From a bacterium (lineage in GTDB: Bacteria > UBA9089 > CG2-30-40-21 > SBAY01), in contig JBFMDD010000032.1 of the NCBI GenBank assembly GCA_040754115.1, positions 1 through 32,197 of the forward strand: a stretch of DNA of 32,197 bases, given 5' to 3'. Made by a program: the position numbers and the translations under genes. This document shows positions 75 to 31,528 of the stretch, piece after piece. Numbering within the stretch: position 1 is the stretch's first letter; the number at the start of each line of letters is the position of its first letter. The notes beneath the pieces were generated by a model that ran no database searches, was not told where the DNA came from, and was given only the letters and a program-made list of their open reading frames with translations.

Positions 75-122
75 GCTACAACTACCACCTACAAGCTACC
101 GACTTCCAGTCGGTAGTAGTTG
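75..122. repeat. Imperfect hairpin with CTACnnn heptamer periodicity in the arms; perfect inner hairpin at 96-116
   Basis: CTAC recurs at 76, 82, 89 and 96. CTACCGACT-TCC-AGTCGGTAG (96-116) is a perfect 9-bp stem. The outer pairing is CAACTAC (79-85) with GTAGTTG (116-122). A separate small hairpin GTCGGC-TTTA-GCCGAC lies at 51-66. Confidence 0.6.
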
Positions 123-124
123 AC

Positions 125-173
125 TTTTTATTTTTTATTTTTTATTTTTTATTTTTTTATTTTTTATTTTTTA
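125..173. repeat. Tandem heptamer tract (TTTTTTA)n, about 7 units (one unit is 8 nt, the first is 6 nt)
   Basis: Read directly: ttttta tttttta tttttta tttttta ttttttta tttttta tttttta. It contains the TAA stop (157-159, minus strand) and the last codons (..KNKK) of the 809-aa gene, and continues about 30 nt past the stop. Confidence 0.9.
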
Positions 174-2586
174 TTATTTCAAGCATTTGTTCTGCATAAC
201 TATTATCTGGGTCAAGTTTTAATAAATAATTAAATACCACTACTGCATGCTTATACATCCTTTTTATATAATAAATACTACCTAAGTCTTCATATGCTTC
301 AATATTGTTTGGATCAATTCTTATGATTTCTTTACATTCTTCAATAACTTTATCTAACATTCCATCTTTATAATAGACACGAGCTAATGCATTGTGCATC
401 TTTATATCTTGTGTATCTATTTCAACTACCTTTTTATAATTATTAATTGCCTCCTTAATATTACCAAGTTTTTCATAGATATTTCCTATACTTTTATATG
501 CATTTATATATTTAGAGTCTAACTTTAAGGCTTTTTGAAATGTTTTTATTGCTAAATCATATCTTTTTTGATTGAAATATACCAAACCTAAATTATAATA
601 ATATTCAATACCTTCAGGTATCAGGTTTATTGCCATTTTGAATGATGCCTCTGCATCTATATATTTCTTAACTCGGAAGTATTCACGCCCTCTATCGTTG
701 TAGTCAATCCCATATCGTCGAATAGCAACCTTTGCCCAAAAGTCTTTATAGATTTCTTTATCAAATATCCCTCTATAAATGTAATTAGGATTTTTTAATG
801 TATTTATAACCTCTGTCTTTTCCTTTAAACATTTAGAAAGAATCCCTTCTTCAATTGAGTATCCTTTTTCTATACCTACATTCGTAATAAGTGCATCTTT
901 AAAGACAAAATATATAGAAAAGGAATCAATATTGTCATTAAGAATCCTTTTAAATATGGGTTGATAATGGGAATATAAACCTTTTACTGGTTCCTCATTT
1001 AGTTCTATCTTTAACCAGGGATACCTATTTTTAATCTCTGATATATACCAGGCTTCATTCAGATTATATACCCTAACAATAGCTACATCTTCTCTTGCCT
1101 TCTCAATGTATCTATGATACCAGGTAGTGAGTATATCCGGTTCAGCTTGAGCAATTAAAATAGATTTCTCAGGTAATTGCCTTAGGATATTCTGTGCAAA
1201 GTCATATGCAAAGTAATATCTTGATTTATTGTTTTGATAATAATTCTGGCTATATGCAATAATTGGAGAAAATAAGAATAAAGTACAAAGAATATAACTT
1301 CCTCCTATCTTAATAAAAGAAGATTTGCCCCTTACAACCTTTACAAGATTAATTATCCCCTTTATTCCACATCCAATAAATACTGCCCAGATTACAAATG
1401 ACGGTATATAATAAACCTCTATATCAAAGATTTGATAATTTATTGAGTAAAGTACATCAGCTATGAAAATTAGCACTAATAACAGTAATAATTTAAAATT
1501 ATTTTTAAATAGTATCCAGAGTCCAATTATACCTATCCACCATATATAAATAGTAAATTGTTTAATAAATAAATTAAAATACTCCTTTAGCTTGACAATA
1601 TTTACTAAGTGAAATACCCACTCTTTTATCTCTTTAAACTCATTAACAGAAAGAAATGTCATCCTGTCTTGGAATTCTTTCCCTGTAATATGATTTATAA
1701 TCTCCGATAGTGTACTCGTATCTCTCCAAGCTGGTTCTGCTTCCATACTTGCCCTAATTGGCAAATATAGATAAGGAAGAAGCCCTATTAGAAAAAGAAG
1801 TATTAATAATCCAAGTCTTTTATACTCAAGAAATATCTTTTTATCTGTTATTAATATCCAAAATATTGCTGCTGGGATTATAAATATAGTTGATAACTGA
1901 TGAGTAAAACTTACCCCACAAACAAATGCAAATAAATAAAGTGGTAAATTAACCTTTGAATTTATTTGAGAGTTATAATTTATTATCCGCTCACGCCAGA
2001 TTACAAGTAGTAATACCATTGATAATAGAAATAGAGCATTAAGGGTATATACCTCTGTTACTACTGCTTGAGACCAGAAGGTAGAGGATACTGCTAATAA
2101 TAAAGCAGCAACAACTGGAGGAGTGTAGTGAACCACCAAAGAATCTTTTCTATCTTGTTTATAAGGTCTAAAACTCTGGAATTTTAAAAGTAAAAGATAG
2201 AGAATCATGCAAGCCAATGCTGCTGCAACAGCAGAGATTAGATTTATTCGATAGGCTATATTACCTAAAGGAAGATATGTAAATAAATGCCCTATCATTA
2301 AATAAGTAGGGTAACCTGTTGGTTGAGTAATTCCTAATGTATAGGCACAGGTAATAAAATTACCACTATCTCCAAATGGCAAGGTAGGAGTTAATGTCTT
2401 CAAATACACCTGAAGGGAGATTAAAAACAATAAGAAGCCTACTACATAATCTATTACAGTAAATGATTGTGGAATAATTAATTCATCTTTTGGGATAAGA
2501 AATCTTGGAATCTTGAAAGGAACCTTCCACTTCCCCTTTTTCTGTTTTCTGTTATCTGTTTTCTGCCCTCTGTTTTTCTTACCCAT
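157..2586 (-). CDS. DUF2723/TMEM260-like GT-C family polytopic glycosyltransferase with C-terminal TPR repeats
   Basis: The N-terminal motif FGDSGNFITCAYTLGITQPTGYPTYLMIGHLF matches my recollection of the DUF2723 signature (..GD.g....a..lGi.HPpGYP.y). About 10 or more hydrophobic helices are followed by repeated 34-aa TPR-like units (AEASFKMAINLIP.., AIKTFQKALKLD.., AINNYKKVVEID..). Confidence 0.75.
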   Translation of the reverse strand: MGKKNRGQKTDNRKQKKGKWKVPFKIPRFLIPKDELIIPQSFTVIDYVVGFLLFLISLQVYLKTLTPTLPFGDSGNFITCAYTLGITQPTGYPTYLMIGHLFTYLPLGNIAYRINLISAVAAALACMILYLLLLKFQSFRPYKQDRKDSLVVHYTPPVVAALLLAVSSTFWSQAVVTEVYTLNALFLLSMVLLLVIWRERIINYNSQINSKVNLPLYLFAFVCGVSFTHQLSTIFIIPAAIFWILITDKKIFLEYKRLGLLILLFLIGLLPYLYLPIRASMEAEPAWRDTSTLSEIINHITGKEFQDRMTFLSVNEFKEIKEWVFHLVNIVKLKEYFNLFIKQFTIYIWWIGIIGLWILFKNNFKLLLLLVLIFIADVLYSINYQIFDIEVYYIPSFVIWAVFIGCGIKGIINLVKVVRGKSSFIKIGGSYILCTLFLFSPIIAYSQNYYQNNKSRYYFAYDFAQNILRQLPEKSILIAQAEPDILTTWYHRYIEKAREDVAIVRVYNLNEAWYISEIKNRYPWLKIELNEEPVKGLYSHYQPIFKRILNDNIDSFSIYFVFKDALITNVGIEKGYSIEEGILSKCLKEKTEVINTLKNPNYIYRGIFDKEIYKDFWAKVAIRRYGIDYNDRGREYFRVKKYIDAEASFKMAINLIPEGIEYYYNLGLVYFNQKRYDLAIKTFQKALKLDSKYINAYKSIGNIYEKLGNIKEAINNYKKVVEIDTQDIKMHNALARVYYKDGMLDKVIEECKEIIRIDPNNIEAYEDLGSIYYIKRMYKHAVVVFNYLLKLDPDNSYAEQMLEIIKNKK

Positions 2587-2596
2587 CTTGTCTACT

Positions 2597-2626
2597 ATTA
2601 TACTTTCTCCTCCCTGCCATTGTCAA
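2597..2626 (-). promoter_or_regulatory. Sigma70-type promoter TTGACA-18-TATAAT, 10 nt upstream of ATG 2586 (leaderless-type)
   Basis: The minus strand reads TTGACA (2626-2621), an 18-nt spacer atggcagggaggagaaag, TATAAT (2602-2597), agtagacaag, then ATG. There is no SD between the -10 box and the ATG. Confidence 0.6.
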
Positions 2627-2733: not shown

Positions 2734-3032
2734 GTAACCGTTCAGGGTGTAATGAAGGGAAAAGGGGAATAGTGGGAAAACCTGTTCCTGACAGGTTCAG
2801 GAAAGGGAAATTTATTTTTATGGAGAGGGATTTGATAGTTATTCTGGTGATTTCTTTCGGATATTTATTTGTAAGCGTCCACAGAAAATTGAAATTGGAA
2901 ATTAGAAATTGGGCTTTCACTTCTCTCCCTAATTTCTAATTTCAACTCTCTTTTCTTTCCGTAAGCTTTCAAACAAAAGTGAACCCTCCCAAATTCTTTA
3001 ATATTTTCCCTTACTTACCCCTGAACGCTTAC
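2734..3032 (+). mobile_element. MITE-like nested repeat, copy A (outer shell plus inner core with GAAATTR heptamer hairpin)
   Basis: Terminal inverted repeats are GTAACCGTTCAGGGTGTAATGAAGGGAAAA (2734-2763) and the reverse complement of 3004-3032, GTAAGCGTTCAGGGGTAAGTAAGGGAAAA. The inner core spans about 2822-2990, with its hairpin at 2884-2945 (GAAATTAGAAATT / AATTTCTAATTTC). The whole element is the reverse complement of copy B (10009-10271), with indels. No coding capacity. The stop codon of the DUF3307 gene (3029-3031) lies inside the right TIR. Confidence 0.8.
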
Positions 3033-3773: not shown

Positions 3774-4994
3774 CTACTTGTCACTTTCTCCTTTAATCAA
3801 TCCATCTTCATACGCCTTCAAAAATGCAGTTGCTACTTCTGAATCAAATTGAGAGCCAGCATGTTCTTTTATCTCATCTAAAGCCCGTTGATGCGGCAAT
3901 CCTTTACGATATGGTCTATCAGAGGTCATAGCATCAAATGTATCTGCTACTGCTAATATTTTACCTCCAATGGATATATCTTTACCTTGTAGTTTATTAG
4001 GATATCCATTTCCATCATATCGTTCATGATGTTGCCAGACACCTGGAACAATAGATTGTAATTGTTTTATTGGTCTAATAATTCCCGCTCCAATCTCAGG
4101 ATGTTTCTTAATTTGCTCAAATTCCTCATCTGTTAACTTTTCAGTTTTTCTAAGAATACTTTCATCAATTCCTATCTTACCAATATCATGAAGTAATCCT
4201 GCCAGTCTAATAGTTTCTTCCTCATCACTACTCAAATTTAATTTTTGAGCGATTGCTTGAGAATATTTCATTACCCGTTCACTATGTCCATGTGTATATG
4301 GGTCTTTTGCTTCAATAGTAGTAACTAAAGCCTTGATGCTGCTAAAGAATAGGTTTTTTAAATCCTCGTACAAGTGTGAATTTTCAATAGCAATTGCCTC
4401 TTGATTAGCCATTGCCTGCAGTAGTTCTAAATCATCTTTAGAGAACCTATCCTCTCCAATTTTATTAATAGCCTCTACTACCCCAATTATTCTGTTTTTA
4501 ATTAATAATGGGACACATAGAATAGATTTGGTTACAAATTTAATTTCCTCATCTATCCTGCGATCTTGAGAAAATCTTGGATCTTTACGAACATCCGCAA
4601 TTGAAATAGGTTGTTTGTTTTTAACTACCCACCCTGCTACCCCTTCACTGATAGGAAATCTAATCCTTTTTATCTCTTCTTTTTTCTCTCCCAGAGCTAC
4701 CTCAAACACAAATTCATTATGCTCCTCATCTATCAACATTAATGAAGATGCCTCTGCTTTTAATAGTTTAGTAGTAAGTTCCATAATTATAGGTAATAAT
4801 TCTTTTATGTGTAGAGTAGAATTAACAATTTGGCTTACTTCAACCAAAGATTCTAAAGTAGCCATCTTTTGACAAATGGCGTTAAAAGATTTATTAAATG
4901 AGTAAAATTTTTCGAGTTCAGTATAATCAAACTTTTTTACAATCTCTTTTTGTAATTCTTCTAATTGTGTTTGTGCTAATTTTAGTTCTTCCAT
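3774..4994 (-). CDS. GAF domain + HD-GYP domain protein (c-di-GMP phosphodiesterase type)
   Basis: HD-GYP motifs are present: HGHSERV, LHDIGKIGI, HHERYDGNGYP. The preceding region of about 150 aa (LMLIDEE..EFVFEVALG..GVAGWV) is GAF-like. The ATG overlaps the stop of the upstream gene by 13 nt. Confidence 0.85.
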   Translation of the reverse strand: MEELKLAQTQLEELQKEIVKKFDYTELEKFYSFNKSFNAICQKMATLESLVEVSQIVNSTLHIKELLPIIMELTTKLLKAEASSLMLIDEEHNEFVFEVALGEKKEEIKRIRFPISEGVAGWVVKNKQPISIADVRKDPRFSQDRRIDEEIKFVTKSILCVPLLIKNRIIGVVEAINKIGEDRFSKDDLELLQAMANQEAIAIENSHLYEDLKNLFFSSIKALVTTIEAKDPYTHGHSERVMKYSQAIAQKLNLSSDEEETIRLAGLLHDIGKIGIDESILRKTEKLTDEEFEQIKKHPEIGAGIIRPIKQLQSIVPGVWQHHERYDGNGYPNKLQGKDISIGGKILAVADTFDAMTSDRPYRKGLPHQRALDEIKEHAGSQFDSEVATAFLKAYEDGLIKGESDK

Positions 4995-7357
4995 TTTGAT
5001 AAAAATTCCTTTGCATAAATATCATCTGGACTAAGTTTTAATAAGTATTCAAACGCCTTTTTTGCCTCATCAATTTTCCCTTGATGGGCATAAATATTGC
5101 CTAATATCTTACATGTATTTGCATTTTCTGGGTTAAGGTGAAGGATAATTAAACATTGCTTAAGTGCCTCATCCAGATTATTTTCTTCAAGATAGAAAGA
5201 GACTAATCTTTCTCTAAGCCAGATAGTTCGAGGGCCGGATTCCTTAGCTAATAATTCCTTAATATCTGCTTTAATATCACCTTTGCCAGATTGTGCATAG
5301 GTTCGCATCAAATTGGTTAATGCCATAGAATAGTCAGGTTTAAGCCATAGTGCTTGTTTAAATTCCTTGATAGCCTCATCATATTTTCCAAGTCTTTGAT
5401 ACACCAATCCAATAGTATTATGTGGGTCTGGATTGTACGGGTCAACCTCTATTGCCTTTTTGAACGCCTTAACAGCTTTATCTAACTCTTTACCGCCCAA
5501 ATAGTATCCTGCACCTAAAATAGAGTTTCCTACACCATCATCAGGATTAAGAGCAATTAACTTTTGGGCTTGTGTAATAGTCTTTTTAATCCATACCTCA
5601 TCACCAGTATCCTGTGCATAATGTAAGTAGATAGAACATACCTCTCGATAATACTGAGTTTCGTAAGGATTAAATTGTAACGCTCGCTCAAATCTATATT
5701 GAGTGTCTTTTTTATACTCAGGAGGCATAGCCTGAAGTAAAGTTCCCTGTTCATAATTAAAATCAGCAATACATGGTCTTACAACTAATAAAATCCATAA
5801 CCAGATAGCCATTCCTATTGTAGCTAAAGAGATAATCCATCGCAATTCTTTAATTGTAATAGGTAGTGGAAAAGAAGTAGATTTAGCTCTAAATATCATT
5901 CCTGAGGCAAGGATAATCCAAAAGAAAGATGAAGAAGAAACACCAGTAGGACTGAAACTGTTTTGAATAAGATGAGAAAACAAAGCAGATAATAGTCCTG
6001 GAATAAGGAATTTTTCCATACCATCAGCATGCCAATAAGTCTTCAGGCAAATAATTATAAAAGTTATTAGCAGCCAGAGATAAATGATTAATCCAATAGT
6101 CCCTCTTGATACCCAAATATCTAATAACTCATTATGAACACTGGCAGCAGTAGCATAAGCTCCCTCTGCCATTGCAGATTCTACAGGTTTATACCGTGAA
6201 TGAATAATACCGACGGTATCTAACCCTATACCTAAAATTGGGTAGTCAAGAATGATATTTAATGCACCTTGCCATATGTATATTCGCGGATTTAACTTAG
6301 CCATAGAAGTAGCGGTGAATGTCCCAACTTCAAAAGGAGATACCTGTTTTGGTGGCGAAGGCTTAAAAATAGTTGCAAACCTACCAATTACAGCTAATTC
6401 TGGATTTATATTTGAAAAGACTAAATAGCAAAGAAAAATTACACCAAATATTCCTAATAACTGTCTTTTATAAGTAATTATCTTCTTTCCTAATAAAATC
6501 CCTATTAACGCAAGTCCTCCAACCATACCCAGAAAAGGTGCTCGACTGGCTGAAAAACAAAATCCATATAAAATTATACCAATACATATTCCATATACCC
6601 AAAAAGGTATTTTCTCTATTTGAGTTTTAGGTTGTTCAGGATATTGTAGAGTAACTCGTCTCTTTTTCTTTTTCTTTTTTGAAGGCACGGTATGTTTCTT
6701 TTCTTGCTTGTGTGTAATTTCTCTTGAGAAGAACATACATATTGTTATTCCTAACACCATAATAATATAATTCCCAAAACCAATAGGGTTGCCTAAACTT
6801 GATGATACTCTACCCCCAGTGAATAACTCCCATTTTACCGGGTCAAGACCATAATGTTGGATAATACCATAGCCTGCAACTAAAACACCACTAAGGATAA
6901 TTACATTAATAAACCAGAGAACTAATTCTTTATTTATAAAATTAACCACACAATAAAATAAAAATATGTAGTTAATCACTACAAGTAACCCTTCAAAATG
7001 GCCATAAAAGCCAAATAGGCTGATTATTGGGTTAATAGAAAAGATAGTAGCAATTATACTAATTAATAAGAAAGCAAGTATTGGAATATCAATAGGCGTT
7101 CTTACAAATTTAAGCTCTCTTGTAAAGACAATCTTGACTATCCATGTAATTGCAATAATCAGTGATAATGTGTACATAAAGGCTATCTTTTGGAGATCAA
7201 GGGCATTAATATTCAACCCGAAAAATAAAGGGATAGTAAATACCATTACCACTATACAGCTCACAATAACTCTATCATAGAGAGGTAATCGTTTACATCT
7301 GTAAAAGGTGATAGAAAATACTATTAATATCATACAGCCAATGATAAACATATTCAT
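4982..7357 (-). CDS. O-antigen ligase (Wzy_C) family polytopic membrane protein with C-terminal TPR repeats
   Basis: Wzy_C-type motifs are SASRAPFLGMVGG and VHNELLDIWVSRGTIG, with many TM helices. The C-terminal roughly 250 aa are TPR units (AVKAFKKAIEVDP, AIKEFKQALWLKP, AKKAFEYLLKLSP). It is a paralog of 7372..9633 and 18435..20945, sharing the N-terminal motif E(L/F)(K/Q)F(V/I)R(T/S).(I/L)D.P(I/V)LAFL. The RBS AAGGAG lies in the 14-nt gap upstream. Confidence 0.8.
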   Translation of the reverse strand: MNMFIIGCMILIVFSITFYRCKRLPLYDRVIVSCIVVMVFTIPLFFGLNINALDLQKIAFMYTLSLIIAITWIVKIVFTRELKFVRTPIDIPILAFLLISIIATIFSINPIISLFGFYGHFEGLLVVINYIFLFYCVVNFINKELVLWFINVIILSGVLVAGYGIIQHYGLDPVKWELFTGGRVSSSLGNPIGFGNYIIMVLGITICMFFSREITHKQEKKHTVPSKKKKKKRRVTLQYPEQPKTQIEKIPFWVYGICIGIILYGFCFSASRAPFLGMVGGLALIGILLGKKIITYKRQLLGIFGVIFLCYLVFSNINPELAVIGRFATIFKPSPPKQVSPFEVGTFTATSMAKLNPRIYIWQGALNIILDYPILGIGLDTVGIIHSRYKPVESAMAEGAYATAASVHNELLDIWVSRGTIGLIIYLWLLITFIIICLKTYWHADGMEKFLIPGLLSALFSHLIQNSFSPTGVSSSSFFWIILASGMIFRAKSTSFPLPITIKELRWIISLATIGMAIWLWILLVVRPCIADFNYEQGTLLQAMPPEYKKDTQYRFERALQFNPYETQYYREVCSIYLHYAQDTGDEVWIKKTITQAQKLIALNPDDGVGNSILGAGYYLGGKELDKAVKAFKKAIEVDPYNPDPHNTIGLVYQRLGKYDEAIKEFKQALWLKPDYSMALTNLMRTYAQSGKGDIKADIKELLAKESGPRTIWLRERLVSFYLEENNLDEALKQCLIILHLNPENANTCKILGNIYAHQGKIDEAKKAFEYLLKLSPDDIYAKEFLSKWKN

Positions 7358-7371: not shown

Positions 7372-9633
7372 TTACCTTGTTATCATACCAAGCATTTGTT
7401 TTGCATAACTGTTCTGCGGGTCGACCTTTAAAACTGCCTCAAACTCATGCCTTGCTTTATTAAATATTTGTTGATTGATATAAATAGTGCCTAAGTTATT
7501 ACGGGCAAAAATATTGTTTGAATCTAATTCAATTGCCTTTTTAAATTGAGTTTCTGCCTCTTTATATCTTTTTTGGTCGAAGTAAATTTTACCTAATTTG
7601 TTATAAGAGTCTGGTTTTTGAGGGTTATATGCAATAGCTTTTTTTAAAAGCTCTATTGCTTTATTTATCTGGCCTTTAACTTGATATAATTCACCTAAGA
7701 TTCGTAAGTAATTAGAATCATCTGGAAATATAGCAGAGGCTTGTTCCATTTCTCTAATTGCCTCATCATATTTTCCCTGTCTGACATAAATAGCAGCAAT
7801 ATTATTATGTGGGTCGGCAAATAGTGGTTTATATTTAATTGCATTTTTAGAGGCTTCAATTGACTTGTTAGCACAGCTCTCATCTCCACGAACATATTTC
7901 TCTCCATAAGCAGAACTTAAAAGATTGTAATAATAAGGATGAAGTGGATTACACCTAACTGCTTCCTCTCCTTTGGCAATAAGCATATCTAACCAATACA
8001 TATCTTGAGTTTGATTAAATTTAATATTATATGCATTCAAAATCTCACCATAATAAAATTCTTCACCAGGATTATACTCTAATGCCTTTTCATAACTGGC
8101 AATAGCCTGATCAATATTATTATAATGTACCATTGCTAACCCATTTTTATAGTAAATATCTGCAATATATGGTCGTAAAGATAAAGAAATGAGTTGGTAA
8201 ATTAAAATCAATAAAGGGATACATATTACAATACGAATAATAATATGTACTCTAATGGGTTTAGTCATTTGAGGTTTGGGCATACCGATAGGGATTGCCA
8301 TACCTAATAATAACCAGAATAAAGAAGATGTCCCAATGATTCCAAAGCCAACTTCATTTTGTACAAGATAAGAGATTATAGCGGCTAATACACCAACTAA
8401 TAAAATCTTGTTTTCTTGTTTAATTGAGGAATAATTTTTATATACAAATATAAATAGTAAAATTATAATCCAGAAGTATGCAGCTAATCCTAATAGTCCA
8501 CGAGTTATAGCCATATCTAAGGCTTCCATATGCGCCTTGTCAATCAGGCAATTTCTGCCCCCTTCTGAACGAATAAATTCAATATTTTCATACTTAGTAG
8601 AAACCATCCGTAAGGCATCCGGTCCTACTCCTAAAAAAGGATGTTCTTTTATAATCCGCAGTCCGGTTTGCCAGATATAAACTCTTGTCTCGGCAGTGCT
8701 GGTAAGTCTTATTGTTGGAATAGCTTTCCCTTCCTCTTTCTCTACTGCAATTGTTGATGTAAACTTTTTCACTAAACCCGATTCTCCCTTTAGGAAAAAT
8801 ATTCCAGTAGCAACACTCATAATTACAAAAAGTATTGAAAATCGTAGCTTCATTTTAAGAAATTGTTTCACTAATAGGATGCCAAATAAAAGTATTCCTG
8901 TACCAAGTCCAAGTGCTCCTCCTCGATGAGCAAGTAGAGAAAAGCATTTATAGATTAAGAGAAGACTTATCAAAGAAGTAGCTAAAAAAATAATTTTTTT
9001 TACCATAGTGTGCTTCTTTGAATATGGCAGGAGGAATAGAGTTAAAGGGAGAAAGAAAACCATAGCTAAATAGCCACCTACGAAATTAGGATTGCCAAAA
9101 GTAGAAATTAACCCAGATTCCCATTTGGTTAAATCAATTCCATAGAATTGCAATATTCCACAACCAGCAACTAAGACTCCAGCAAAAGTGATAAAACCAA
9201 TAGTTCTTTTAAGATATTTGCGTTGCCTTAAAAAATTAACCGCAATATAATATATAAAGATATAATTAACAGTGCTAATTAATCCATCGTATCTTTTGTA
9301 TTCGCCTACCAGACTCATATACGGATGTACACCATTTATTGTAGCGGCGATACTTATAATTAAAAAGGCAAGTATCGGGACATCAAGTGGGGTTCTTATG
9401 AACTGAAATTCATTTGTAAATGTAATTTTTAAACACCAAATTCCAAGAATAATAAGTGTCAATACCCGCATAGCAGTTACTTTTGCTAAATCAAAACTGG
9501 TTATATGTGGGTCAAAGAGAAGTGGGATTATTAAAAACATTAAAACCAAAATAACAATAATTACTCTATCGAAATATTCACTAATTTTCTTTGAGTGTTT
9601 TAATAGATTCCTTGAAAGCTTTGATATATTCAT
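7372..9633 (-). CDS. O-antigen ligase (Wzy_C) family polytopic membrane protein with C-terminal TPR repeats
   Basis: Motifs LAHRGGALGLGTG and KAHMEALDMAITRGLLG are Wzy_C-type. It shares the N-terminal motif EFQFIRTPLDVPILAFLIISIAATI with its paralogs, and the C-terminal half is TPR. Confidence 0.8.
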   Translation of the reverse strand: MNISKLSRNLLKHSKKISEYFDRVIIVILVLMFLIIPLLFDPHITSFDLAKVTAMRVLTLIILGIWCLKITFTNEFQFIRTPLDVPILAFLIISIAATINGVHPYMSLVGEYKRYDGLISTVNYIFIYYIAVNFLRQRKYLKRTIGFITFAGVLVAGCGILQFYGIDLTKWESGLISTFGNPNFVGGYLAMVFFLPLTLFLLPYSKKHTMVKKIIFLATSLISLLLIYKCFSLLAHRGGALGLGTGILLFGILLVKQFLKMKLRFSILFVIMSVATGIFFLKGESGLVKKFTSTIAVEKEEGKAIPTIRLTSTAETRVYIWQTGLRIIKEHPFLGVGPDALRMVSTKYENIEFIRSEGGRNCLIDKAHMEALDMAITRGLLGLAAYFWIIILLFIFVYKNYSSIKQENKILLVGVLAAIISYLVQNEVGFGIIGTSSLFWLLLGMAIPIGMPKPQMTKPIRVHIIIRIVICIPLLILIYQLISLSLRPYIADIYYKNGLAMVHYNNIDQAIASYEKALEYNPGEEFYYGEILNAYNIKFNQTQDMYWLDMLIAKGEEAVRCNPLHPYYYNLLSSAYGEKYVRGDESCANKSIEASKNAIKYKPLFADPHNNIAAIYVRQGKYDEAIREMEQASAIFPDDSNYLRILGELYQVKGQINKAIELLKKAIAYNPQKPDSYNKLGKIYFDQKRYKEAETQFKKAIELDSNNIFARNNLGTIYINQQIFNKARHEFEAVLKVDPQNSYAKQMLGMITR

Positions 9634-10008: not shown

Positions 10009-10271
10009 GTAAGCGTTCAGGTGTAAGTAAGGGAAAATGGAAGAGCAGGGAAAAAGGGGAAAAATATTAAAGAATTTGGAACGGTTCACTTTTGTTTGAA
10101 AGTTTGCGGAAAGAAAAGAGAGTTGAAATTCGAAATTAGAAATTAGGGAGAGGACTGAAGACCTAATTTCTAATTTCCAATTTCTAATTTCTGCAAGAAA
10201 TCATAGGAAAAACGATAAAATGAGCCGTCCCTAAATTTCCCATTTTCCCTTCATTACACCTGAACGGTTAC
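10009..10271 (-). mobile_element. MITE-like nested repeat, copy B (inverted relative to copy A)
   Basis: It starts GTAAGCGTTCAGGTGTAAGTAAGGGAAAA and ends TTTTCCCTTCATTACACCTGAACGGTTAC. The inner core spans about 10078-10231, with its heptamer hairpin at 10124-10192 (GAAATTAGAAATTAGG / CCTAATTTCTAATTTC). The element ends 20 nt before the -35 box of the VWA gene promoter. Confidence 0.8.
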
Positions 10272-10290
10272 AAAAATATTTTTATAACAC

Positions 10291-11401: not shown

Positions 11402-12054
11402 ATAGTTTATGTATTAAGGTATTTATTTTAATTACTTCCTTTCTCTTTATAGGATTTGGGGATAGCCTTACTTCTAAGAACAAGGCTGGAAATAAACTTT
11501 ATGAGCAAGGGAAATATGATGAGGCATTGGCTAAATATCGCGATGCACAACTTGATGAACCTGAATCACAGGAACTATATTTTAATATAGGTGATATTTT
11601 ATATAAAAAGCAAAGGTATGAAGAGGCAATTAAAGAGTATCAAAAGGTACTAACAAGTAAAGATACTCTCCTGCAAGCTAAAACTTATTATAATATTGGT
11701 AATTGTCAATACAGAGCTGGTAAATTAGTCGATGCAATTACCTCTTACAAAAAATCATTAGAGATTAACCCGAATGATTTAGAGGTAAAGTATAATTTAG
11801 AGTTTGTGCGTAAGAAGTTAAAAGAATTAGCACAAAAACAACAAGAGAAAAAACAGTCAGCCCAAGCCGATAAGCAAAAACAAAATGAGGAAAGAAAGAG
11901 AGGGAAACAAGTCCAAAAAGAAAAAGACAAAAAGAAGATGTCTAAAGAAGATGCTAAACGAATATTAGAGGCTTTGGAAGAGGATGAAAAGGATGCTCAA
12001 AAGCGCAAGCAACTACAAATGAGTGGTGCTAAACAGGTAGAAAAAGATTGGTAG
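11395..12054 (+). CDS. TPR repeat protein with Lys/Glu-rich tail (BatC-like)
   Basis: It has a signal/TM N-terminus, three TPR units (ALAKYRDAQLDEP, AIKEYQKVL, AITSYKKSLEINP), and a charged tail (QQEKKQSAQADKQKQNEERKRGKQVQKEKDKKK). The ATG overlaps the VWA stop (ATGGTGA), and GGAGG lies upstream. Confidence 0.75.
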   Translation: MVNSLCIKVFILITSFLFIGFGDSLTSKNKAGNKLYEQGKYDEALAKYRDAQLDEPESQELYFNIGDILYKKQRYEEAIKEYQKVLTSKDTLLQAKTYYNIGNCQYRAGKLVDAITSYKKSLEINPNDLEVKYNLEFVRKKLKELAQKQQEKKQSAQADKQKQNEERKRGKQVQKEKDKKKMSKEDAKRILEALEEDEKDAQKRKQLQMSGAKQVEKDW

Positions 12055-12055
12055 A

Positions 12056-12231: not shown

Positions 12232-12240
12232 GATTGGTAG

Positions 12241-12484: not shown

Positions 12485-12496
12485 TGCGATTTTAGA

Positions 12497-12643: not shown

Positions 12644-12646
12644 TAA

Positions 12647-18412: not shown

Positions 18413-18434
18413 TAAAGAATTTAAAATTTTTGTT

Positions 18435-20945
18435 CTATCTGGTCATAGAATCTACTACTTGTCTAAGTCCCGTATCCTCTGGGTGATATCTTAGATACAG
18501 TTCAAATTCACTTTTTGCTTTATAATATAAAGTAGCATCTTCATTTATTTGTCCTTTTGTTCTTTTACTTTCTGCTGCTCTAAAATAAGCAGCACCTAAG
18601 TCACGGCGGACATTTATATTTTTAGGGTCTATTTTAACTATTTCTTCAAATGCCTTTGAAGATTCATCATATTTGCCTTGTGAAAAGTATATCTCGCCTA
18701 ATCTATGATGAGCATTAATTAGGTCTGGCTCAACTGCAAGGGCTTTTTTTAGCCAATTAATTGCCTCATTATAGTCTCCCTTCTTAAAATAAATATCACC
18801 TATGGTTACTTTGCATTGTCCATCATTTGGTCTCATCTTTGCTACCTTTTTATACTCTGCAATAGCATTATCATACTCGTTATCTTTAGAATATAATGCT
18901 CCTAAGTTATTAAGTGGTTCTGCAAAGATAATATTATATTTTAATGCTGCATGATATGCCTCAATAGCCTTTTGTTTAGCTGTTTTAGAACCTACATCGT
19001 ACTCCAATGCATAAGTAGCTCCTAAAATATTATAAAAATAGCCATCTTTCGGATTAACCTTAAAGGCATCTTTTATACGATTAAATGTCTTACGAATCCA
19101 TTCCTTTTTTAGTTCTATTTGAGTCATGGGGATAGAAGCAGCTTTCTTATAATAGGTATATGTCAACTCACCGTAATAGTGTCTTTCTCTAAAATTGCGG
19201 TGTACTGCCTCTTCATACATCTTTAAAGCTGTATCTAAGTCTTGGTCATGAATTGCTTTTTCGCCTTTATTAAAGTAGTAATCTGCTCGATAGGGGAAAA
19301 GAGAAAGGTAACCTAATAAGCAAACTACTACAACGACTAAAGTAGCTAAACCAGTTTGAATAGGTGTAAGTCGAATGTAAAGAGAAGGCTTTTTATGTAT
19401 ATCAGGTTCTATTTTCTGAGGTGTAAGCCTGGTATAACCACAAACTACCATTGTCATACCCATTAAAGTCCAGTAAAAAGGAGTAAAAGAGACAACTGCA
19501 AAGGCAAATTGATTTTGCACTATATACGCTGTCCAGCCAGATAGAAATCCAGCTATTAGTAATTTATCTTTTTCTACTGGGGCACGAAGGTACCCTCTAA
19601 TAGCCAGATAAATAAAAGCACCTAATAACCAAAGATAGATTGCCAACCCTCCTAAACCTCTTGTAACAGCCATGTCAAATACTTCATTATGAGCTCTATC
19701 GTAGTCAACATTATATCCTTCTAATTTCTCCATACCAGGTAGTTCATAAAGAGGATATACCCACTTCATAGTATCTACTCCTACCCCAAATAATAACCCA
19801 CAATAAGGGAAAGTCAGTGGGCCACGAATTGGTCCATCTTGAGGATAATGAGCAATAATTATAGCCGAATTCCGCCATATAAAGTATCGAGAGCCAAGTG
19901 CTCCTATAAGTTTATTTATCAACCAATTTTTTTTAGGCTGAGTAGATTCTGAAATTTCCTCTTCCCCAGTAATCACCTTCTGAAGGATTTCTCCCTTTTC
20001 TTCTTTAGCTGACTTGATAACATTAACCATTCGTTCTGCTACTGAACCCGGTTGAAGGCAAAGATAACCTGTAAATATTAAAAATGTTAAACTAAATACC
20101 ATAGCCCTCTTTCGAGTATAAATAAATGCCTTTTTAGTCCACAGAGTAGCAAATAGAATTATGCCTGCTAATAAACCTGCCAGAGGCCCACGGCTTTTTG
20201 CTAAGAATAAAGATGCGTACATAGTAATTAAAGCTATTCCAAATAACCAACTCTTTATTGTCTCCTCTCTACCTTTATGAATAAGCTTTTTATTCTTTGC
20301 CTTTTTCTTTGGAATAACTTTCTGCAGAATATCTTCCTTTATAAAGAAATATCCTATTGTTACCGGGATAATTGTAGCTAAGTATGCACCCAAAAATATA
20401 GGGTTACCAAATGTAGCCACAGCCCTTTCCTGGACATCCGCAGCCCAGGATATAGGGTCAAGACCTGCTCTTTGAACAAATGTGTAAAAAGAAGCTATGA
20501 ATCCAACTCCTATTCCTACATAAGCTGTTAGATTAAGTAATTTGCGATTATTATGTAAGAAATTAGTTGCAGTAAAAAATAGCAGTACATAACAAATAGT
20601 TGTGGTTAACCCTTCATGCCTTTTATAAGCACCAACTATACTTGTAAATGGGTCAACTGAGAATATTGTCGAGACAATGCTGACTAAAAGAAAGGCTAAA
20701 ACAGGTAAGTCCAATTTACTACGCACAAATTTAAATTCATTGGTTAAAATTATTCGCAAAAGCCATGCACCTATTATAACTAATGAAAATAGGCGCAATA
20801 AAGTCACCTTCGGAATGTCAAATACACCTCTACAGTGGGTGTCAAAGTAAAGCGGAACAACAAGAAGTAATCCTAAAAAAGCCCATTCAACTACTTTAGT
20901 ACAAATATCTTCTATCTTCTTCTTATTCATTTTTTCCAACTCCAT
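18435..20945 (-). CDS. O-antigen ligase (Wzy_C) family polytopic membrane protein with C-terminal TPR repeats
   Basis: Motifs LAKSRGPLAGLLAG and RAHNEVFDMAVTRGLGG are Wzy_C-type. The N-terminal EFKFVRSKLDLPVLAFLLVSIVSTI is shared with the two paralogs at 4982-9633, and the C-terminal roughly 280 aa are TPR. No SD precedes ATG 20945. Confidence 0.8.
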   Translation of the reverse strand: MELEKMNKKKIEDICTKVVEWAFLGLLLVVPLYFDTHCRGVFDIPKVTLLRLFSLVIIGAWLLRIILTNEFKFVRSKLDLPVLAFLLVSIVSTIFSVDPFTSIVGAYKRHEGLTTTICYVLLFFTATNFLHNNRKLLNLTAYVGIGVGFIASFYTFVQRAGLDPISWAADVQERAVATFGNPIFLGAYLATIIPVTIGYFFIKEDILQKVIPKKKAKNKKLIHKGREETIKSWLFGIALITMYASLFLAKSRGPLAGLLAGIILFATLWTKKAFIYTRKRAMVFSLTFLIFTGYLCLQPGSVAERMVNVIKSAKEEKGEILQKVITGEEEISESTQPKKNWLINKLIGALGSRYFIWRNSAIIIAHYPQDGPIRGPLTFPYCGLLFGVGVDTMKWVYPLYELPGMEKLEGYNVDYDRAHNEVFDMAVTRGLGGLAIYLWLLGAFIYLAIRGYLRAPVEKDKLLIAGFLSGWTAYIVQNQFAFAVVSFTPFYWTLMGMTMVVCGYTRLTPQKIEPDIHKKPSLYIRLTPIQTGLATLVVVVVCLLGYLSLFPYRADYYFNKGEKAIHDQDLDTALKMYEEAVHRNFRERHYYGELTYTYYKKAASIPMTQIELKKEWIRKTFNRIKDAFKVNPKDGYFYNILGATYALEYDVGSKTAKQKAIEAYHAALKYNIIFAEPLNNLGALYSKDNEYDNAIAEYKKVAKMRPNDGQCKVTIGDIYFKKGDYNEAINWLKKALAVEPDLINAHHRLGEIYFSQGKYDESSKAFEEIVKIDPKNINVRRDLGAAYFRAAESKRTKGQINEDATLYYKAKSEFELYLRYHPEDTGLRQVVDSMTR

Positions 20946-20953
20946 TTATTTAG

Positions 20954-20999
20954 TGATTGGTGACTGGTAATTGGTTAAATAGTTACCAGTTACCAATCA
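20954..20999. repeat. Heptamer-built hairpin (GGTGACT/GGTAACT units) overlapping the GH57 stop codon
   Basis: TGATTGGTGACTGGTAA (20954-20970) pairs with TTACCAGTTACCAATCA (20983-20999), giving 17 bp with one G.T. The loop is 12 nt. The TGA stop of GH57 is 20999-20997. The hairpin ends 8 nt upstream of ATG 20945. Confidence 0.85.
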
Positions 21000-22655
21000 A
21001 ATAGCTTTGTCAAGTATCTCTGGATGTGTTAGACCTAATTTAAAATAGGCATTCTTTAGATGGTCTCTAAATAAACTATCAAATTGAGCATCTCTATCAC
21101 TTGAATAATCGCAGCCATACCACCAAAACCAGTCACTTCCTTCTGCTGCATAAATAGACTCAAAAACCTGTGGATGTTTATCCTGCTTAATTCCTTTTTT
21201 ATCTAAATCATCTCTAACTAAACGAAGTAATTCCCAGGCATTATTTTTTTGTTTATCGCCTATCCATGTCCCTAAATCATTTCCTGGCATAGAGCCTGCC
21301 TGGTCTATCCAACTGGCACAAAATAAATCATAAACCCTTTTTTGAGTATGTTTAGGATGTGCCAAAATATCCCTATTAGCATTACCTGTTATGTACTCTG
21401 AGAAAGTAACGGTAATAATATCTTCATCGTTAGATAAATTTTTATAGAGTGCATTAAGGAATTCTATGCCGCTATTACGATAAGTACCCCAAGGGTTCTC
21501 TCCGTCAAGGATTACAGTTAAGATTCTATCTTCATCATTTGCAAATTCTTTCACACTATTAATGAATTCCTCAGCCGCCTGCTCATAATCTTCATATCCT
21601 TGATAATCAAAACTTATAGCATTAGATAGTTTAGTTTGGCGGAAGAAGATATTTACTCCTAAATTTCTGTCATCATCTATTGCTAAATAAGGCTGACATA
21701 AAATCTCAGGTTTATAAGCCTCGTATCCATATTTACCTGATTTTTGTAATACACCCTCATCAGAGGCAATCCAATCAATATTAGCCTGTGCAAATAGATG
21801 AATAGTAGTTTGACTTACCGCACCCTCTGTTGGCCACATACCTCGTGGAGAGCGGCCAAACACATTAGCATAATACTCCACTGCTAAATTAATTTGAGCC
21901 TCTGCATCCTCTGGTCTTGAAAATTGCAAAGGGAGAACTAACCCTTCTTTATCAATAGTTGCCTGATTAGTATCATAAATTAAAGGAATAATCGGATGAT
22001 AAAATGGTGATGTGGATACTTCAATTTGACCTTCATCCTGGAGGGTTTTATAAATAGGAATGATGTTACGCATAATTTTATACTGTAAATCTACTATTTC
22101 TGTCATATCTTCTTCTTTGAATCCTGTTCCTTTTTCAATAAAATTTTTTACAGTTACTATACTTGCGTCAGGTAATTTAACTTCACCTCGTTTAAATTCC
22201 TCTCCAAACCAGCATAAATTAAACCAGATTTTTAAGTCAATCAAATCCTGATTATTAAAGGTCTTTTTAGCTTGCCTTTTTTTCAATAACTCTTTATACC
22301 GCGGATATGGATAAATTTGTGTTTCGTAGTTTGCATCAAAAAAATGCATAAGAATATAATCTTTATTTCCCATAGATAATTTAGAAACAGGCGTCAATGA
22401 TAATTCTAATTCTTTATCAGTAGCTGAATTATTAACATAATCCTCAATCTGCCATAGTAGAGATGGCACGAAGTTAAATGTTAGATGTAGCGAGGGATAT
22501 TTCTTAAGCATTTGTGCCATACTAAAATAGTCTCTTATAGAATGTAATCTCACCCATGGCATAAAATAAGCCCCCTTTTGCTCATTAATTTTATTTTTAT
22601 ACATTGGTTGATGAAAATGCCATAAAATGGCTAAATGAATTTTATGCGAGTTCAT
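20997..22655 (-). CDS. Glycoside hydrolase family 57 protein (alpha-glucan acting; exact activity not assignable)
   Basis: GH57 signatures are present: LAILWHFHQP, VSTSPFYHPIIPL, GMWPTEGAVS (nucleophile Glu region), ILDGENPW (acid/base Asp region). The start was set at ATG 22655 (MNSHKIHLAILWHFHQP), which has the SD AGAGGA 6 nt upstream and lies 2 nt after the surE stop, instead of the track start 22682. Confidence 0.85.
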   Translation of the reverse strand: MNSHKIHLAILWHFHQPMYKNKINEQKGAYFMPWVRLHSIRDYFSMAQMLKKYPSLHLTFNFVPSLLWQIEDYVNNSATDKELELSLTPVSKLSMGNKDYILMHFFDANYETQIYPYPRYKELLKKRQAKKTFNNQDLIDLKIWFNLCWFGEEFKRGEVKLPDASIVTVKNFIEKGTGFKEEDMTEIVDLQYKIMRNIIPIYKTLQDEGQIEVSTSPFYHPIIPLIYDTNQATIDKEGLVLPLQFSRPEDAEAQINLAVEYYANVFGRSPRGMWPTEGAVSQTTIHLFAQANIDWIASDEGVLQKSGKYGYEAYKPEILCQPYLAIDDDRNLGVNIFFRQTKLSNAISFDYQGYEDYEQAAEEFINSVKEFANDEDRILTVILDGENPWGTYRNSGIEFLNALYKNLSNDEDIITVTFSEYITGNANRDILAHPKHTQKRVYDLFCASWIDQAGSMPGNDLGTWIGDKQKNNAWELLRLVRDDLDKKGIKQDKHPQVFESIYAAEGSDWFWWYGCDYSSDRDAQFDSLFRDHLKNAYFKLGLTHPEILDKAI

Positions 22656-26062: not shown

Positions 26063-26170
26063 TTGATCGTATAGTAATAAAATTAGAGTAGAGATTTTAA
26101 TCTCTATTTTTAGAGGATAAATCCTCTACTCTATTAAAGTTATCAAGCGAAGCGAGATTTTTTGCTTGAC
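26053..26170. repeat. Nested inverted repeats flanked by the direct repeat ATTTTTTGCTTGA
   Basis: The direct repeat occurs at 26053-26066 (aattttttgcttga) and 26156-26169 (gattttttgcttga). Inverted pairs are GCTTGAT/ATCAAGC (26061-26067 / 26142-26148), TAGAGTAGAG/CTCTACTCTA (26084-26093 / 26124-26133), AGAGAT-TTTA-ATCTCT (26090-26105) and AGAGGAT-AA-ATCCTCT (26112-26127). Confidence 0.75.
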
Positions 26171-26303: not shown

Positions 26304-26352
26304 GGAGTGACAGCACTTGTGCTGTCAATGACACCACAAGTGGTGTCACTCC
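26304..26352 (+). promoter_or_regulatory. Twin 18-bp inverted repeats enclosed by GGAGTGA/TCACTCC, ending 28 nt upstream of the FliO-like ATG (operator- or RNA-structure-like)
   Basis: The twin repeats are GACAGCAC-TT-GTGCTGTC (26309-26326) and GACACCAC-AA-GTGGTGTC (26330-26347), separated by AAT. The outer pair is GGAGTGA (26304-26310) with TCACTCC (26346-26352). Function is unknown. Confidence 0.45.
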
Positions 26353-30248: not shown

Positions 30249-30304
30249 ACCTTCTAAACCTTAATGTTTATGGGAAAAAATTGTTAATTTTATTAAAAAA
30301 ATGC

Positions 30305-30333
30305 TTGCATTTTAGAGGATAATATGGTATTAT
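30305..30333 (+). promoter_or_regulatory. Sigma70-type promoter TTGCAT-17-TATTAT, 8 nt upstream of ATG 30342 (leaderless-type)
   Basis: TTGCAT is at 30305-30310, followed by the 17-nt spacer tttagaggataatatgg, TATTAT at 30328-30333, aactgtca, then ATG. There is no SD. Confidence 0.55.
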
Positions 30334-30341
30334 AACTGTCA

Positions 30342-31352
30342 ATGGATAATAATAAGATTGGAATTTTGGGAGGTGGTTCTTGGGGGACAACATTAGCTAT
30401 ATTACTTTATGAAAAAGGGCTGTCAATTAAAATATGGGAATTTTCGGATGAGCAGGTAGAAATAATAAGTAAAAAGCGAGAGAATGTAAAATTTTTACCA
30501 GGTATTTTTATTCCACAAGAAATTGAGATAACAAGTTGTTTAGAAGATGTGGTCAAAGAAGCAAATGTGATAGTAATAGCTCTTCCTTCGCAGGTAGTAA
30601 GAGAGGTAGCAAAGCGATTAGTTCCACTGATTACACATAATGCAGTGATAATTTCCGCGGTAAAGGGTTTAGAAATTTCTACAATGAGGCGAATATCAGA
30701 AGTGCTAAGTGAGTACCTGCCACAAGAAATAAAAATCGGTGTTATATCAGGACCTTCTCATGCAGAGGAGGTAAGTCGCAAAATTCCAACAGCAATAGTA
30801 ACTGCTGCACAAGATGAAAAGACAGCGAAATTTATTCAAGAACTTTTTCTGACACCAAATTTAAGAGTATATACTAATACAGATTTGGTAGGAGTAGAGT
30901 TGGGTGGAGCTTTAAAGAATGTTATTGCAATAGCAGCAGGTATTTCAGATGGATTGGGATTGGGAGATAATACGAAAGCAGCACTTATTACAAGAGGACT
31001 AGTTGAAATTATTCAAATAGGAAGAATATTGGGTGCAAAAGAATCTACATTTTTAGGGCTAAGCGGACTGGGAGATTTAGTAGTTACATGTACAAGTAAG
31101 TATAGTCGAAATAGACACTTAGGGGAAATGATAGGGAAGGGGAGTTCACTTCAAGAAGCTTTATCTAAGATGGTTATGATTGCAGAGGGTGTTCCTACGA
31201 CTAAGGCTGCTAAGGAGCTAGCAAATAAAGTAGATATTGAACTTCCTATTACAAATGAGGTGTACAAGGTACTTTTTGAAGCGAAGAATCCAAGACAAGC
31301 AGTTAATGATTTAATGTTGCGAAGTGCCAAGGCAGAGGAAGAGTTAGTATAG
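30342..31352 (+). CDS. gpsA: NAD(P)H-dependent glycerol-3-phosphate dehydrogenase
   Basis: Motifs are IGILGGGSWGTTLA (Rossmann), SGPSHAEEV and GGALKNVIAIAAGISDGLGLGDNTKAAL, with a length of 336 aa. Confidence 0.95.
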   Translation: MDNNKIGILGGGSWGTTLAILLYEKGLSIKIWEFSDEQVEIISKKRENVKFLPGIFIPQEIEITSCLEDVVKEANVIVIALPSQVVREVAKRLVPLITHNAVIISAVKGLEISTMRRISEVLSEYLPQEIKIGVISGPSHAEEVSRKIPTAIVTAAQDEKTAKFIQELFLTPNLRVYTNTDLVGVELGGALKNVIAIAAGISDGLGLGDNTKAALITRGLVEIIQIGRILGAKESTFLGLSGLGDLVVTCTSKYSRNRHLGEMIGKGSSLQEALSKMVMIAEGVPTTKAAKELANKVDIELPITNEVYKVLFEAKNPRQAVNDLMLRSAKAEEELV

Positions 31353-31385
31353 GGGTGTGAGCTGTAATAAAAAAATCAATGAAGC

Positions 31386-31528
31386 CTCTCGGATAAAAAT
31401 AAGGTTCAAGGAGAAAGGAGCAAGGGAGAGTAATCTTGTACCTTGATCCTTGTTCCTTCGGTGGGGGTGAAGAAGGAATTATCTGCTCAGAAAGGCTAAT
31501 AAAATCAACGCTCAATTTTATCCGAGAG
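31386..31528. mobile_element. 143-bp TIR-bounded MITE-like insertion with AAGGnnn heptamer hairpin (element E)
   Basis: CTCTCGGATAAAAAT (31386-31400) is inverted against ATTTTATCCGAGAG (31515-31528). The inner arms are AAGGTTC AAGGAGA AAGGAGC AAGGGAG (31401-31428), facing the reverse complement of TTGTACCTTGATCCTTGTTCCTT (31436-31458), which reads AAGGAAC AAGGATC AAGGTAC AA. The CTCTCGGATA motif is shared with the core element (12088-12097). Confidence 0.7.

Follow-up and report, generated by a model that had tools for sequence, protein, structure and literature searches.

Intergenic palindromes with tandem heptamer arms in a non-cyanobacterial clade are probable dispersed repeats of the STRR type

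We analyzed a 32,197-nt stretch of bacterial DNA (contig JBFMDD010000032.1 of assembly GCA_040754115.1; hereafter the window), in which nine intergenic hairpins have arms built from tandem 7-nt units. On balance, the evidence tips slightly toward reading these elements as heptamer palindromes of the short tandemly repeated repetitive (STRR) type: dispersed families, some of them carried in nested MITEs (miniature inverted-repeat transposable elements), that change length by 7-nt slippage, turn over fast, and are transcribed with effects that are probably incidental. All nine loci, and a T-rich tract beside one of them, were found at the positions at which an earlier note on this DNA had reported them.

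Analysis of the window with Tandem Repeats Finder (TRF) gave period 7 in 16 of 45 rows. Using one uniform detector, with 50 dinucleotide shuffles for reference, we found 15 period-7 arrays where 2.3 were expected, 10 of them with an inverted partner, and six hairpin loci with heptamer arms where the shuffles gave 0.00; the same detector returned no hairpin loci in the window at periods 5, 6, 8, 9, 10 or 11. A stricter run test yielded 5 arrays against 0.01. The loci at 75-122, 31401-31458 and 20954-20999 lie below the threshold of the uniform detector. For comparison, seven contigs from related genomes (90 kb), fetched via their YidC or GH57 proteins and not via repeats, contained 41 period-7 arrays (7.2 in shuffles) and 14 hairpin loci (0.05 in shuffles), with five hairpin loci at period 8 as a minor second class. 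The combination of 7-nt periodicity and dyad symmetry described in the earlier note is real and, in the window, specific to period 7, the only period at which hairpins occur; both there and in the relatives it is commoner than in shuffled sequence.

The earlier note had also proposed that the arms can pair in several registers. Register differences between inverted repeats peak at 7, 14, 21, 28 and 35 (15, 16, 12, 11 and 5 cases), with at most 5 cases at any other value up to 35, and multi-register pairing is therefore confirmed. For the AGTAGAG hairpin as single-stranded DNA (ssDNA), the minimum free energy structure makes up 0.36% of the ensemble, i.e. many registers coexist. Eight hairpins fold as RNA with -20 to -55 kcal/mol (z -4.0 to -9.2), and six loci fold as ssDNA with z -3.8 to -8.5. 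Folding energies of sense and antisense RNA were compared at seven loci, a sample of low power; three were better in the sense orientation, three worse and one equal. With no sense-strand bias, there is no sign of selection on RNA structure. A search of the window against Rfam 15 at gathering score gave 0 matches, and sub-threshold matches of microRNA precursors to the long AGTAGAG hairpin in an E-value search of 17400-21100 were rejected as generic hairpin matches.

The nine loci cover 19% of the intergenic DNA of the window, about 40% of which consists of such elements. They fall into five sequence families and are thus not all diverged copies of one element. The earlier description of a different heptamer at each locus was overstated: the four GAAATTR loci are one MITE, and the units read as GGTAAYT and GGTRACT belong to one element. 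Copies of these two elements make up six of the nine loci, against the suggestion that the pattern reflects something other than simple copying.

The four GAAATTR loci align as one non-coding palindromic element of ~149-180 nt with inverted ends (GGGACGGTTCA...TGAACCGTCCC). The end form (G)GGACGGTTCA ... TGAACCGTCCC is present in copies B, C and D, and the left end is degenerate in copy A. Copies A and C are 91-94% identical (repeats D3/D6) and differ by exactly one unit, the right arm of A having one CAATTTC fewer; copies B and C are 90% complementary over 116 nt (repeat I1), and copy D is inverted relative to C, with a 49-aa Cys-rich open reading frame (ORF) in between. On either side of copy C stands the 9-bp sequence GATTGGTAG, directly repeated (12046-12054 and 12232-12240), and the stop codon of a TPR gene falls within its first occurrence. 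The target duplication is clear at copy C, and the flanks of copies B and D are not clear. MITEs A and B are each enclosed in a further palindromic element. The first copy of this outer element has the flanks GGTCTGAG / GGTCCGAG, and its last bases provide the stop codon of a DUF3307 gene; the second was recognized from the repeat matches I14 (33 nt, 91%) and I15 (30 nt, 97%).

The MITE-end pattern was found in 24 metagenome contigs, 18 of which carry an adjacent GAAATTR hairpin with varying unit numbers and loops. In one contig (L125, 134-2039), the ends bound a 1.9-kb element with a short first ORF starting near 283 and a second ORF of 406 aa, and matching end pairs lie ~1.9 kb apart in two others (L130 and L145). 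The L125 element encodes a protein of a multicopy family, with ~120 relatives, mostly of ~500 aa and mostly on ~2-kb contigs, a few of them labelled transposase-like; a tblastn search of the protein against plasmids gave no match. The 1.9-kb element may represent an undescribed insertion sequence (IS) family. Because this IS lacks GAAATT units near its ends, the GAAATTR hairpin is not IS sequence but belongs to the MITE, as its core or as a passenger.

The two GGTAAYT hairpins, both intercistronic, share 93% identity across 41 nt once one of them is reverse-complemented, and the asymmetric loop is part of the match (I9). The stop codon TGA of the GH57 gene is the start of the first unit (TGATTGG) of copy 2. 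TAAAGGG occurs on both sides of copy 1 and is the sole exact candidate target duplication for the bare hairpins; other candidates were AT-rich near-matches and were not trusted. Elsewhere in the clade, GGTAAYT hairpins were found in L001, in L003 (twice) and in L149, where it forms the core of another MITE, one with ends CTAGTGTCGTGTTGA and two copies. Copying is demonstrated through the MITEs and the duplicated hairpins.

The contigs of the clade contain ~35 canonical units. AGTAGAR is present in L149 and L003, and GAAATTR in L151; since the unit families are met again in further genomes of this clade, they are dispersed repeats. Orthologous junctions were then compared. Between yidD and yidC, a GGTAAYT hairpin is present in the window, L001 and L003 and absent from L002, and in L003 a hairpin of TCAAAAC units is nested in its loop, as the MITEs are in the outer element. 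At the 3' junction of the GH57 gene, the window has a GGTAAYT hairpin, L150 a GGAGTTG hairpin, L151 a TTATGAA hairpin, L149 an AGTAGAR hairpin and L152 a bare 10-nt spacer; the GH57 proteins of L150 and L151 are 86% identical. The earlier view that architecture is kept while the unit varies is borne out by the four units at this orthologous junction, but not within the window, where 6 of 9 loci are copies. The elements are common throughout the clade, and from one related genome to another junction occupancy turns over fast.

Copies of the same element are longer or shorter by entire 7-nt units, and within a hairpin one arm may be perfect while the other is degenerate; slippage, which the earlier note had invoked, is strongly indicated by these comparisons. 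In a hairpin of L151 (521-627), two related unit types in series are mirrored unit by unit across the arms, a pattern that points to fold-back copying or arm-to-arm correction. The GH57-junction hairpins begin either at the stop codon or within it, several ORFs have their stop supplied by the repeat unit in which they end, and coding 3' ends merge into the first unit (GTTGTAG in L150, AAAATAG in L149). Most units contain TAA, TAG or TGA. With a unit length not divisible by 3, an array gives a stop in all three frames within 21 nt, which may explain why arrays are tolerated at gene ends. Stops supplied by or duplicated with repeats were seen at 3029-3031, 12052-12054 and 20997-20999 of the window, and at 4468-4470 of L003, 6821-6823 of L149 and 7696-7698 of L151.

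The AGTAGAG hairpin is assigned to the 5' leader of the rpmH operon because a predicted promoter lies directly upstream. Its arms comprise 6.3 perfect units and 4.3 units at 82% (TRF, + strand), and 26 nt separate its end from the rpmH ATG at 18235 (ORF 18101-18235). L001 and L002 conserve the promoter, and L150 has it as well. It is followed in L001 by a 190-nt GTAG-rich leader; the L003 leader is a period-8 palindrome behind its own promoter-like TTGACA-17-GATAAA. Period-8 palindromic arrays with CAGAGACN units occupy 1540-1780 of L003, and period 8 is also seen in L150; some of these arrays may be heptamers with 1-nt insertions. As the earlier note supposed for the intercistronic copies, the hairpins are predicted to be transcribed: the rpmH promoter aims into the AGTAGAG hairpin, and the yidD/yidC and GH57/Wzy copies lie between cistrons. 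The hairpins in the leader and between cistrons probably shape the mRNA of the essential rpmH-rnpA-yidD-yidC operon.

Table 1 Positions of the hairpins, enclosing elements and associated features in the window
Feature	Position	Strand	Description
Weak heptamer hairpin	74-122	.	Between convergent gene ends; core stem GCTACCGACT/AGTCGGTAGT
(TTTTTAT)7.7 direct array	125-179	+	No inverted partner; TRF period 7, 93% matches
Outer palindromic element, copy 1	2734-3032	.	Inverted ends GTAACCGTTCAGGG... / ...CCCTGAACGCTTAC; encloses MITE A
MITE copy A	2824-2990	+	Core hairpin 2881-2951; -25.0 kcal/mol, z -4.7
Outer palindromic element, copy 2	10009-10272	.	Encloses MITE B; divergent promoter region
MITE copy B	10078-10231	-	Core hairpin 10117-10192; -29.0 kcal/mol, z -5.6
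MITE copy C	12055-12231	+	Ends AGACGGTTCA...TGAACCGTCCC; core 12115-12192; -31.8 kcal/mol, z -9.2
MITE copy D	12495-12643	-	Most diverged; core 12540-12604; -29.6 kcal/mol, z -5.9
GGTAAYT hairpin, copy 1	17480-17530	.	Between yidD stop (17533) and yidC ribosome-binding site; -25.3 kcal/mol, z -5.1
AGTAGAG hairpin	18258-18375	-	5' leader of the rpmH-rnpA-yidD-yidC-jag-mnmE operon; -55.2 kcal/mol, z -8.2
Sigma-70 promoter	18384-18412	-	TTGACA-17-TATAAT, 12/12; directly upstream of the AGTAGAG hairpin
GGTAAYT hairpin, copy 2 ('GGTRACT')	20952-21000	.	Fills the GH57/Wzy-TPR gap; -19.9 kcal/mol, z -6.7
Palindromic element	31386-31528	.	Outer arms CTCTCGGATAAAAATAAG / CTCAATTTTATCCGAGAG; between gpsA and the HU gene

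To account for these features, we propose that MITE-borne copies would be dispersed by transposases acting in trans, that arm length would shift by slipped-strand mispairing, and that the inverted layout would be born or kept when one arm serves as template for the other in fold-back (template-switch) copying. With genes tightly packed, surviving copies would be those at stop codons, ahead of ribosome-binding sites and in leaders. Strong stem-loops, once transcribed, may incidentally affect mRNA stability, termination and processing, as elements of the REP, BIME and ERIC type do. In our interpretation, the hairpins are not a dedicated regulatory system.

Several observations weigh against an STRR-type mobile repeat. 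The bare hairpins have no ends beyond their own heptamers and no convincing target duplication, and neither a transposase nor a Y1/RAYT protein was found among the 28 window ORFs scanned against Pfam. The protein of the L125 element matched NCBIfam models no better than at the non-significant E-values of 0.015 and 0.052 (weak hints of IS256 and of an integrative and conjugative element), and no Pfam model. Mobility does not explain the 7-nt step or the identical units in distant phyla, and four families at one 10-nt junction could reflect targeting or local genesis rather than chance re-insertion. The rpmH leader speaks in the same direction: behind one and the same promoter lie the AGTAGAG palindrome in the window, a direct (ATTAnnA)7 array that is not a palindrome in L150, and just single AAGTAGAG and AAAGTAGGG motifs in L002, where AAGTAGAG stands at the position at which the window array begins, which hints at growth from local seeds. 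Local genesis, the structure- or slippage-driven process favored by the earlier note, would have a seed amplified in 7-nt steps and copied into the opposite arm by fold-back template switching, giving site-specific units. It draws further support from the four different units at the GH57 junction, from the L151 arms that mirror two related unit types, from unequal arms of which one is perfect, and from coding ends that blend into the first unit in L150 and L149. We nevertheless consider it rather unlikely, given that six of the nine window loci are demonstrable copies, that units and the asymmetric GGTAAYT loop CCATTTAAC are found again in other genomes and at sites that are not orthologous, that MITE ends and target duplications show transposition, and that units identical to those in cyanobacteria would be hard to obtain by independent local birth.

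Regulation was considered next, with the arrays binding a DNA- or RNA-binding protein, or the stem-loops stabilizing or processing mRNA, and so setting operon expression in the manner of REP/BIME. The placement of the hairpins is consistent with this, at stop codons, upstream of ribosome-binding sites or at transcript 5' ends, and the unit of the yidD/yidC hairpin is kept in three genomes whose YidC proteins are 72-80% identical. Such roles have also been proposed for TAACTGA repeats (PMC4679880), Nostoc heptamers (10.1101/2022.06.06.494920) and the Geobacter pairs (PMC2700814), although none of these proposals has identified a binding protein. The hairpins are, however, dispensable, with empty sites in L002 and L152; unrelated units replace each other at one junction, a pattern that speaks against sequence-specific binding at this site; copies occur in divergent, convergent and co-directional contexts; and neither a sense-strand pairing bias nor an Rfam match was found. 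A selected regulatory role is unlikely on these grounds. That the hairpins are ordinary intrinsic terminators with repetitive stems is very improbable: the locus at 75-122, where a stem precedes a long T-rich tract on the + strand and was flagged by a terminator scan, fits, but the other eight have no U-run, three are found within operons or in a 5' leader, positions at which ending transcription would do harm, and the idea accounts for neither the 7-nt periodicity nor the MITE ends. Assemblers can go wrong at repeats, and the window is just one contig from a metagenome; yet the same architecture and families appear in independent NCBI, JGI and Logan assemblies of several species, and the orthologous junctions are flanked by intact conserved genes, leaving an assembly artefact a practically negligible probability.

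The STRR-type interpretation does not account for the 7-nt step, for the same units in distant phyla, or for different families at the few bases beside a stop codon. A more speculative idea, which we hold to be improbable, is that the palindromes are the footprint of a dedicated, horizontally spreading mechanism, either a mobilizing enzyme or an enzyme that lays down DNA in 7-nt steps. A mobilizing enzyme could target stop-codon-proximal sites or hairpin loops, and the carriers would be filamentous cyanobacteria, Beggiatoaceae, some Bacteroidota, Planctomycetota, Poribacteria and the clade described here. If true, this mechanism would account for the strict period, the identical units across phyla and the repeated occupation of a 10-nt junction.

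Two loci at the ends of the window are the weakest members of the set. At 75-122, the left arm has ~4 degenerate CTAC units (TRF at 74-99: period 7, 3.9 copies, 75% matches) and the right ~1.7, around a core that is an ordinary 10-bp stem; the locus folds with z -1.5 as RNA and z -5.2 as ssDNA. The terminator scan matched 95-117 on the + strand, and the T-rich tract that follows makes the locus terminator-like. This tract, cited earlier as (TTTTTTA)n at 125-173, is present, with the extent and unit corrected in Table 1; it reaches 23 nt into the 3' end of ORF 157-2586 (- strand), whose product ends ...LEIIKNKK*. The other weak locus, 31401-31458, lies in a degenerate AAGGnnn / nnnCCTT hairpin at 31399-31460 (-26.4 kcal/mol, z -4.0), with just 4 of 7 positions conserved.

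The nearest relatives of the YidC and GH57 proteins, at 69-82% identity, come from metagenome-assembled genomes labelled 'bacterium' or 'Nitrospirota bacterium', and the next tier, at up to 55% identity, is scattered over many phyla. The window's own YidC had no exact entry among public assemblies, and the comparisons accordingly used homologues. The host therefore belongs to an uncultivated, non-cyanobacterial clade, in agreement with the earlier note, which had pointed to the flagellar gene fliO and to maf in the window. The window has a G+C content of 33% over 32.2 kb and a high coding density, with 10.2% intergenic sequence. Besides FliO and Maf, it encodes PlsY, GpsA, HU, the rpmH-rnpA-yidD-yidC-jag-mnmE operon, a GAF-HD protein, BatA/VWA, a HicA toxin, GH57, SurE, an FGE-sulfatase/NACHT protein and four TPR proteins, of which three carry Wzy_C domains and the fourth is TMEM260-like. 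A search of the window for tRNA and tmRNA genes found none.

The four TPR proteins are paralogous large membrane proteins encoded within 21 kb (157-2586, 4982-7357, 7372-9633 and 18435-20945), each with a Wzy_C or TMEM260-like domain followed by C-terminal TPR repeats. The longer direct-repeat families D1, D2 and D4 arise because TPR segments are common to these paralogues. Codons 4-16 of ORF 157-2586 consist of a (CAGAAAA)5.6 array (2538-2576, - strand, 75% matches), and a 12/12 promoter at 2626-2597 lies just ahead of it, leaving almost no leader. Gain or loss of a unit shifts the frame, so this may be a phase-variable surface-glycosylation gene (TMEM260-like/TPR glycosyltransferase). The Cys-rich 49-aa ORF between MITE copies C and D (MNFKMIWQRITQFLKGYPFLCDSCKYDYRTACQRPERPNATLCPDYKKR, 12241-12390, - strand) has a promoter-like site (11/12) at 12426-12398, and the two copies bracket it in an arrangement like that of a composite transposon. 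A 31-nt inverted repeat, AATAGCTCAGTTAATGGCAGTGTTCAGTATA, 94% complementary, adjoins copy D at 12646-12676 and recurs near the window end at 31934-31964; it is a further dispersed repeat family. The gap between the FGE-sulfatase/NACHT gene and fliO contains a compound palindrome at 26084-26133 (TAGAGTAGAG...CTCTACTCTA around two small hairpins), with ATTTTTTGCTTGA in direct orientation on either side of it, near 26055 and 26159, and two adjacent hairpins of period 21 at 26304-26352 (GGAGTGACAGCACTTGTGCTGTCA / TGACACCACAAGTGGTGTCACTCC). At 31858-31910, ~30 nt downstream of HU, there is a hairpin not built of heptamers (GGGGTTAAGGGA...TCCCTTAACCCC), and further on TTCTTTGCG occurs several times over ~45 nt at 32130-32175, with a tandem period-9 pair at 32154-32171.

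The clade provides an unusually clean comparative setting, with compact genomes, filled and empty states and four unit families at one site, which allows insertion versus local genesis, and neutrality versus function, to be tested from sequence data alone, given closed genomes or reads. The repeats will also fragment assemblies of short reads and lead gene callers astray; several ORFs stop inside a repeat unit.

Heptanucleotide repeats have been known in cyanobacteria since 1990. Mazel et al. are said to have introduced the cyanobacterial STRR heptanucleotide repeats in that year, and Elhai et al. reportedly described the nested small repeats of Nostoc in 2008; nesting of elements inside one another is seen here too. 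That STRR-type repeats are the closest known counterpart, as the earlier note suggested, is supported by a scan for (GGTAAYT)3 with one genome per species, which located it in other genomes at no fewer than 120 loci, most of them in filamentous cyanobacteria. Among the matches listed, hosts include Calothrix, Rivularia, Microcoleus, Nostocales, Fischerella and Prochloron, with a few in Planctomycetes, Anaerolineae, Poribacteria, Acidobacteria and Saprospiraceae. The listed loci (878 kb) contain 535 heptamer arrays and 74 hairpin loci, and 125 of the 535 arrays (23%) have an inverted partner, compared with 10/15 in the window; a regex test of the cyanobacterial arrangement gave 4/171, but it demanded too exact a spelling of the units, and the general detector took its place. 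At a Sphaerospermopsis locus (L021), a GATTTTG hairpin is nested in a GGTAATT hairpin. Exact matches to 11 of 35 clade units among the 142 units of the listed loci are only suggestive against a chance rate of ~12%, itself a rough estimate and not computed, and overlap allowing one mismatch is uninformative, 93% of random units matching too. The elements share with STRRs the tandem 7-nt units, the intergenic location and several unit families per genome. They differ in their non-cyanobacterial host and in the inverted arrangement, which is the majority here, while STRRs as hairpin arms are not described in the literature found. The classic units CCCCAGT, TTGGTCA and CAACAGT (STRR1-3) are absent as tandem dimers in 122 kb, as are GGGGAYT, TAACTGA and GGGAATC.

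TAACTGA repeats of Beggiatoaceae, cyanobacteria and Bacteroidetes are patchily distributed, show 7-nt indels between strains (MacGregor 2015, PMC4679880), and occur as 169 direct sets versus 1 inverted, for the most part with a start codon a few nt downstream (PMC4679880). GGTAACT, rotated to TAACTGG, is one base from TAACTGA, and both systems are patchy across phyla, with units that give stops in all three frames and arrays at ORF ends; the present arrays, however, are mostly inverted pairs adjoining stop codons, with no tandem TAACTGA. Xanthomonas genomes contain 70-75 convergent pairs of GGGAATC arrays each, capable of forming stem-loops or cruciforms (Rehm et al. 2015, PMC4692102). Here too, unit number varies and arrays are intergenic, between the same genes in related species, but Xanthomonas has one G-rich, quadruplex-forming unit per genome, GC-rich hosts and no reported MITE context. 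In Geobacter metallireducens, tandem hepta-, octa- and nonanucleotide sites form pairs across opposite strands (Aklujkar et al. 2009, PMC2700814); these pairs resemble our elements as multicopy inverted pairs of 3-5 tandem units (e.g. five MTYCTGA), with IS at fixed distances from some. They differ in mixing periods of 7, 8 and 9, in their variable inter-arm spacing, and in having been read by their authors as sites of a global regulator. In Nostoc, heptamers near promoters and start codons had ~2-fold effects on reporters, with no binding protein identified (10.1101/2022.06.06.494920).

The GAAATTR elements resemble MITEs in their inverted ends, 9-bp target duplication, many non-coding copies and a putative IS with the same ends, and depart from them in that the heptamer hairpin is not IS-derived and that the bare hairpins have no separate terminal repeats. 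Like REP/BIME elements and REPINs, the palindromes are multicopy intergenic hairpins of ~50-110 nt with two inverted arms, often right after stops and transcribed, and several units contain GTAG; REPINs are REP doublets that form hairpins and are moved by RAYT transposases (PMC3116915, PMC3733652). REP arms, however, are imperfect palindromes with one terminal GTAG or CGTC tag and no 7-nt periodicity, whereas GTAG here lies inside every AGTAGAG or CTAC unit and not once at an end, so that the arms do not qualify as REP arms. Integron attC sites, which came into question as elements conserved in structure but not in sequence, were rejected without a formal test, the flanking genes being conserved housekeeping genes rather than cassettes, with no integrase. 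The clade is best described as a new host for a known, poorly understood kind of repeat.

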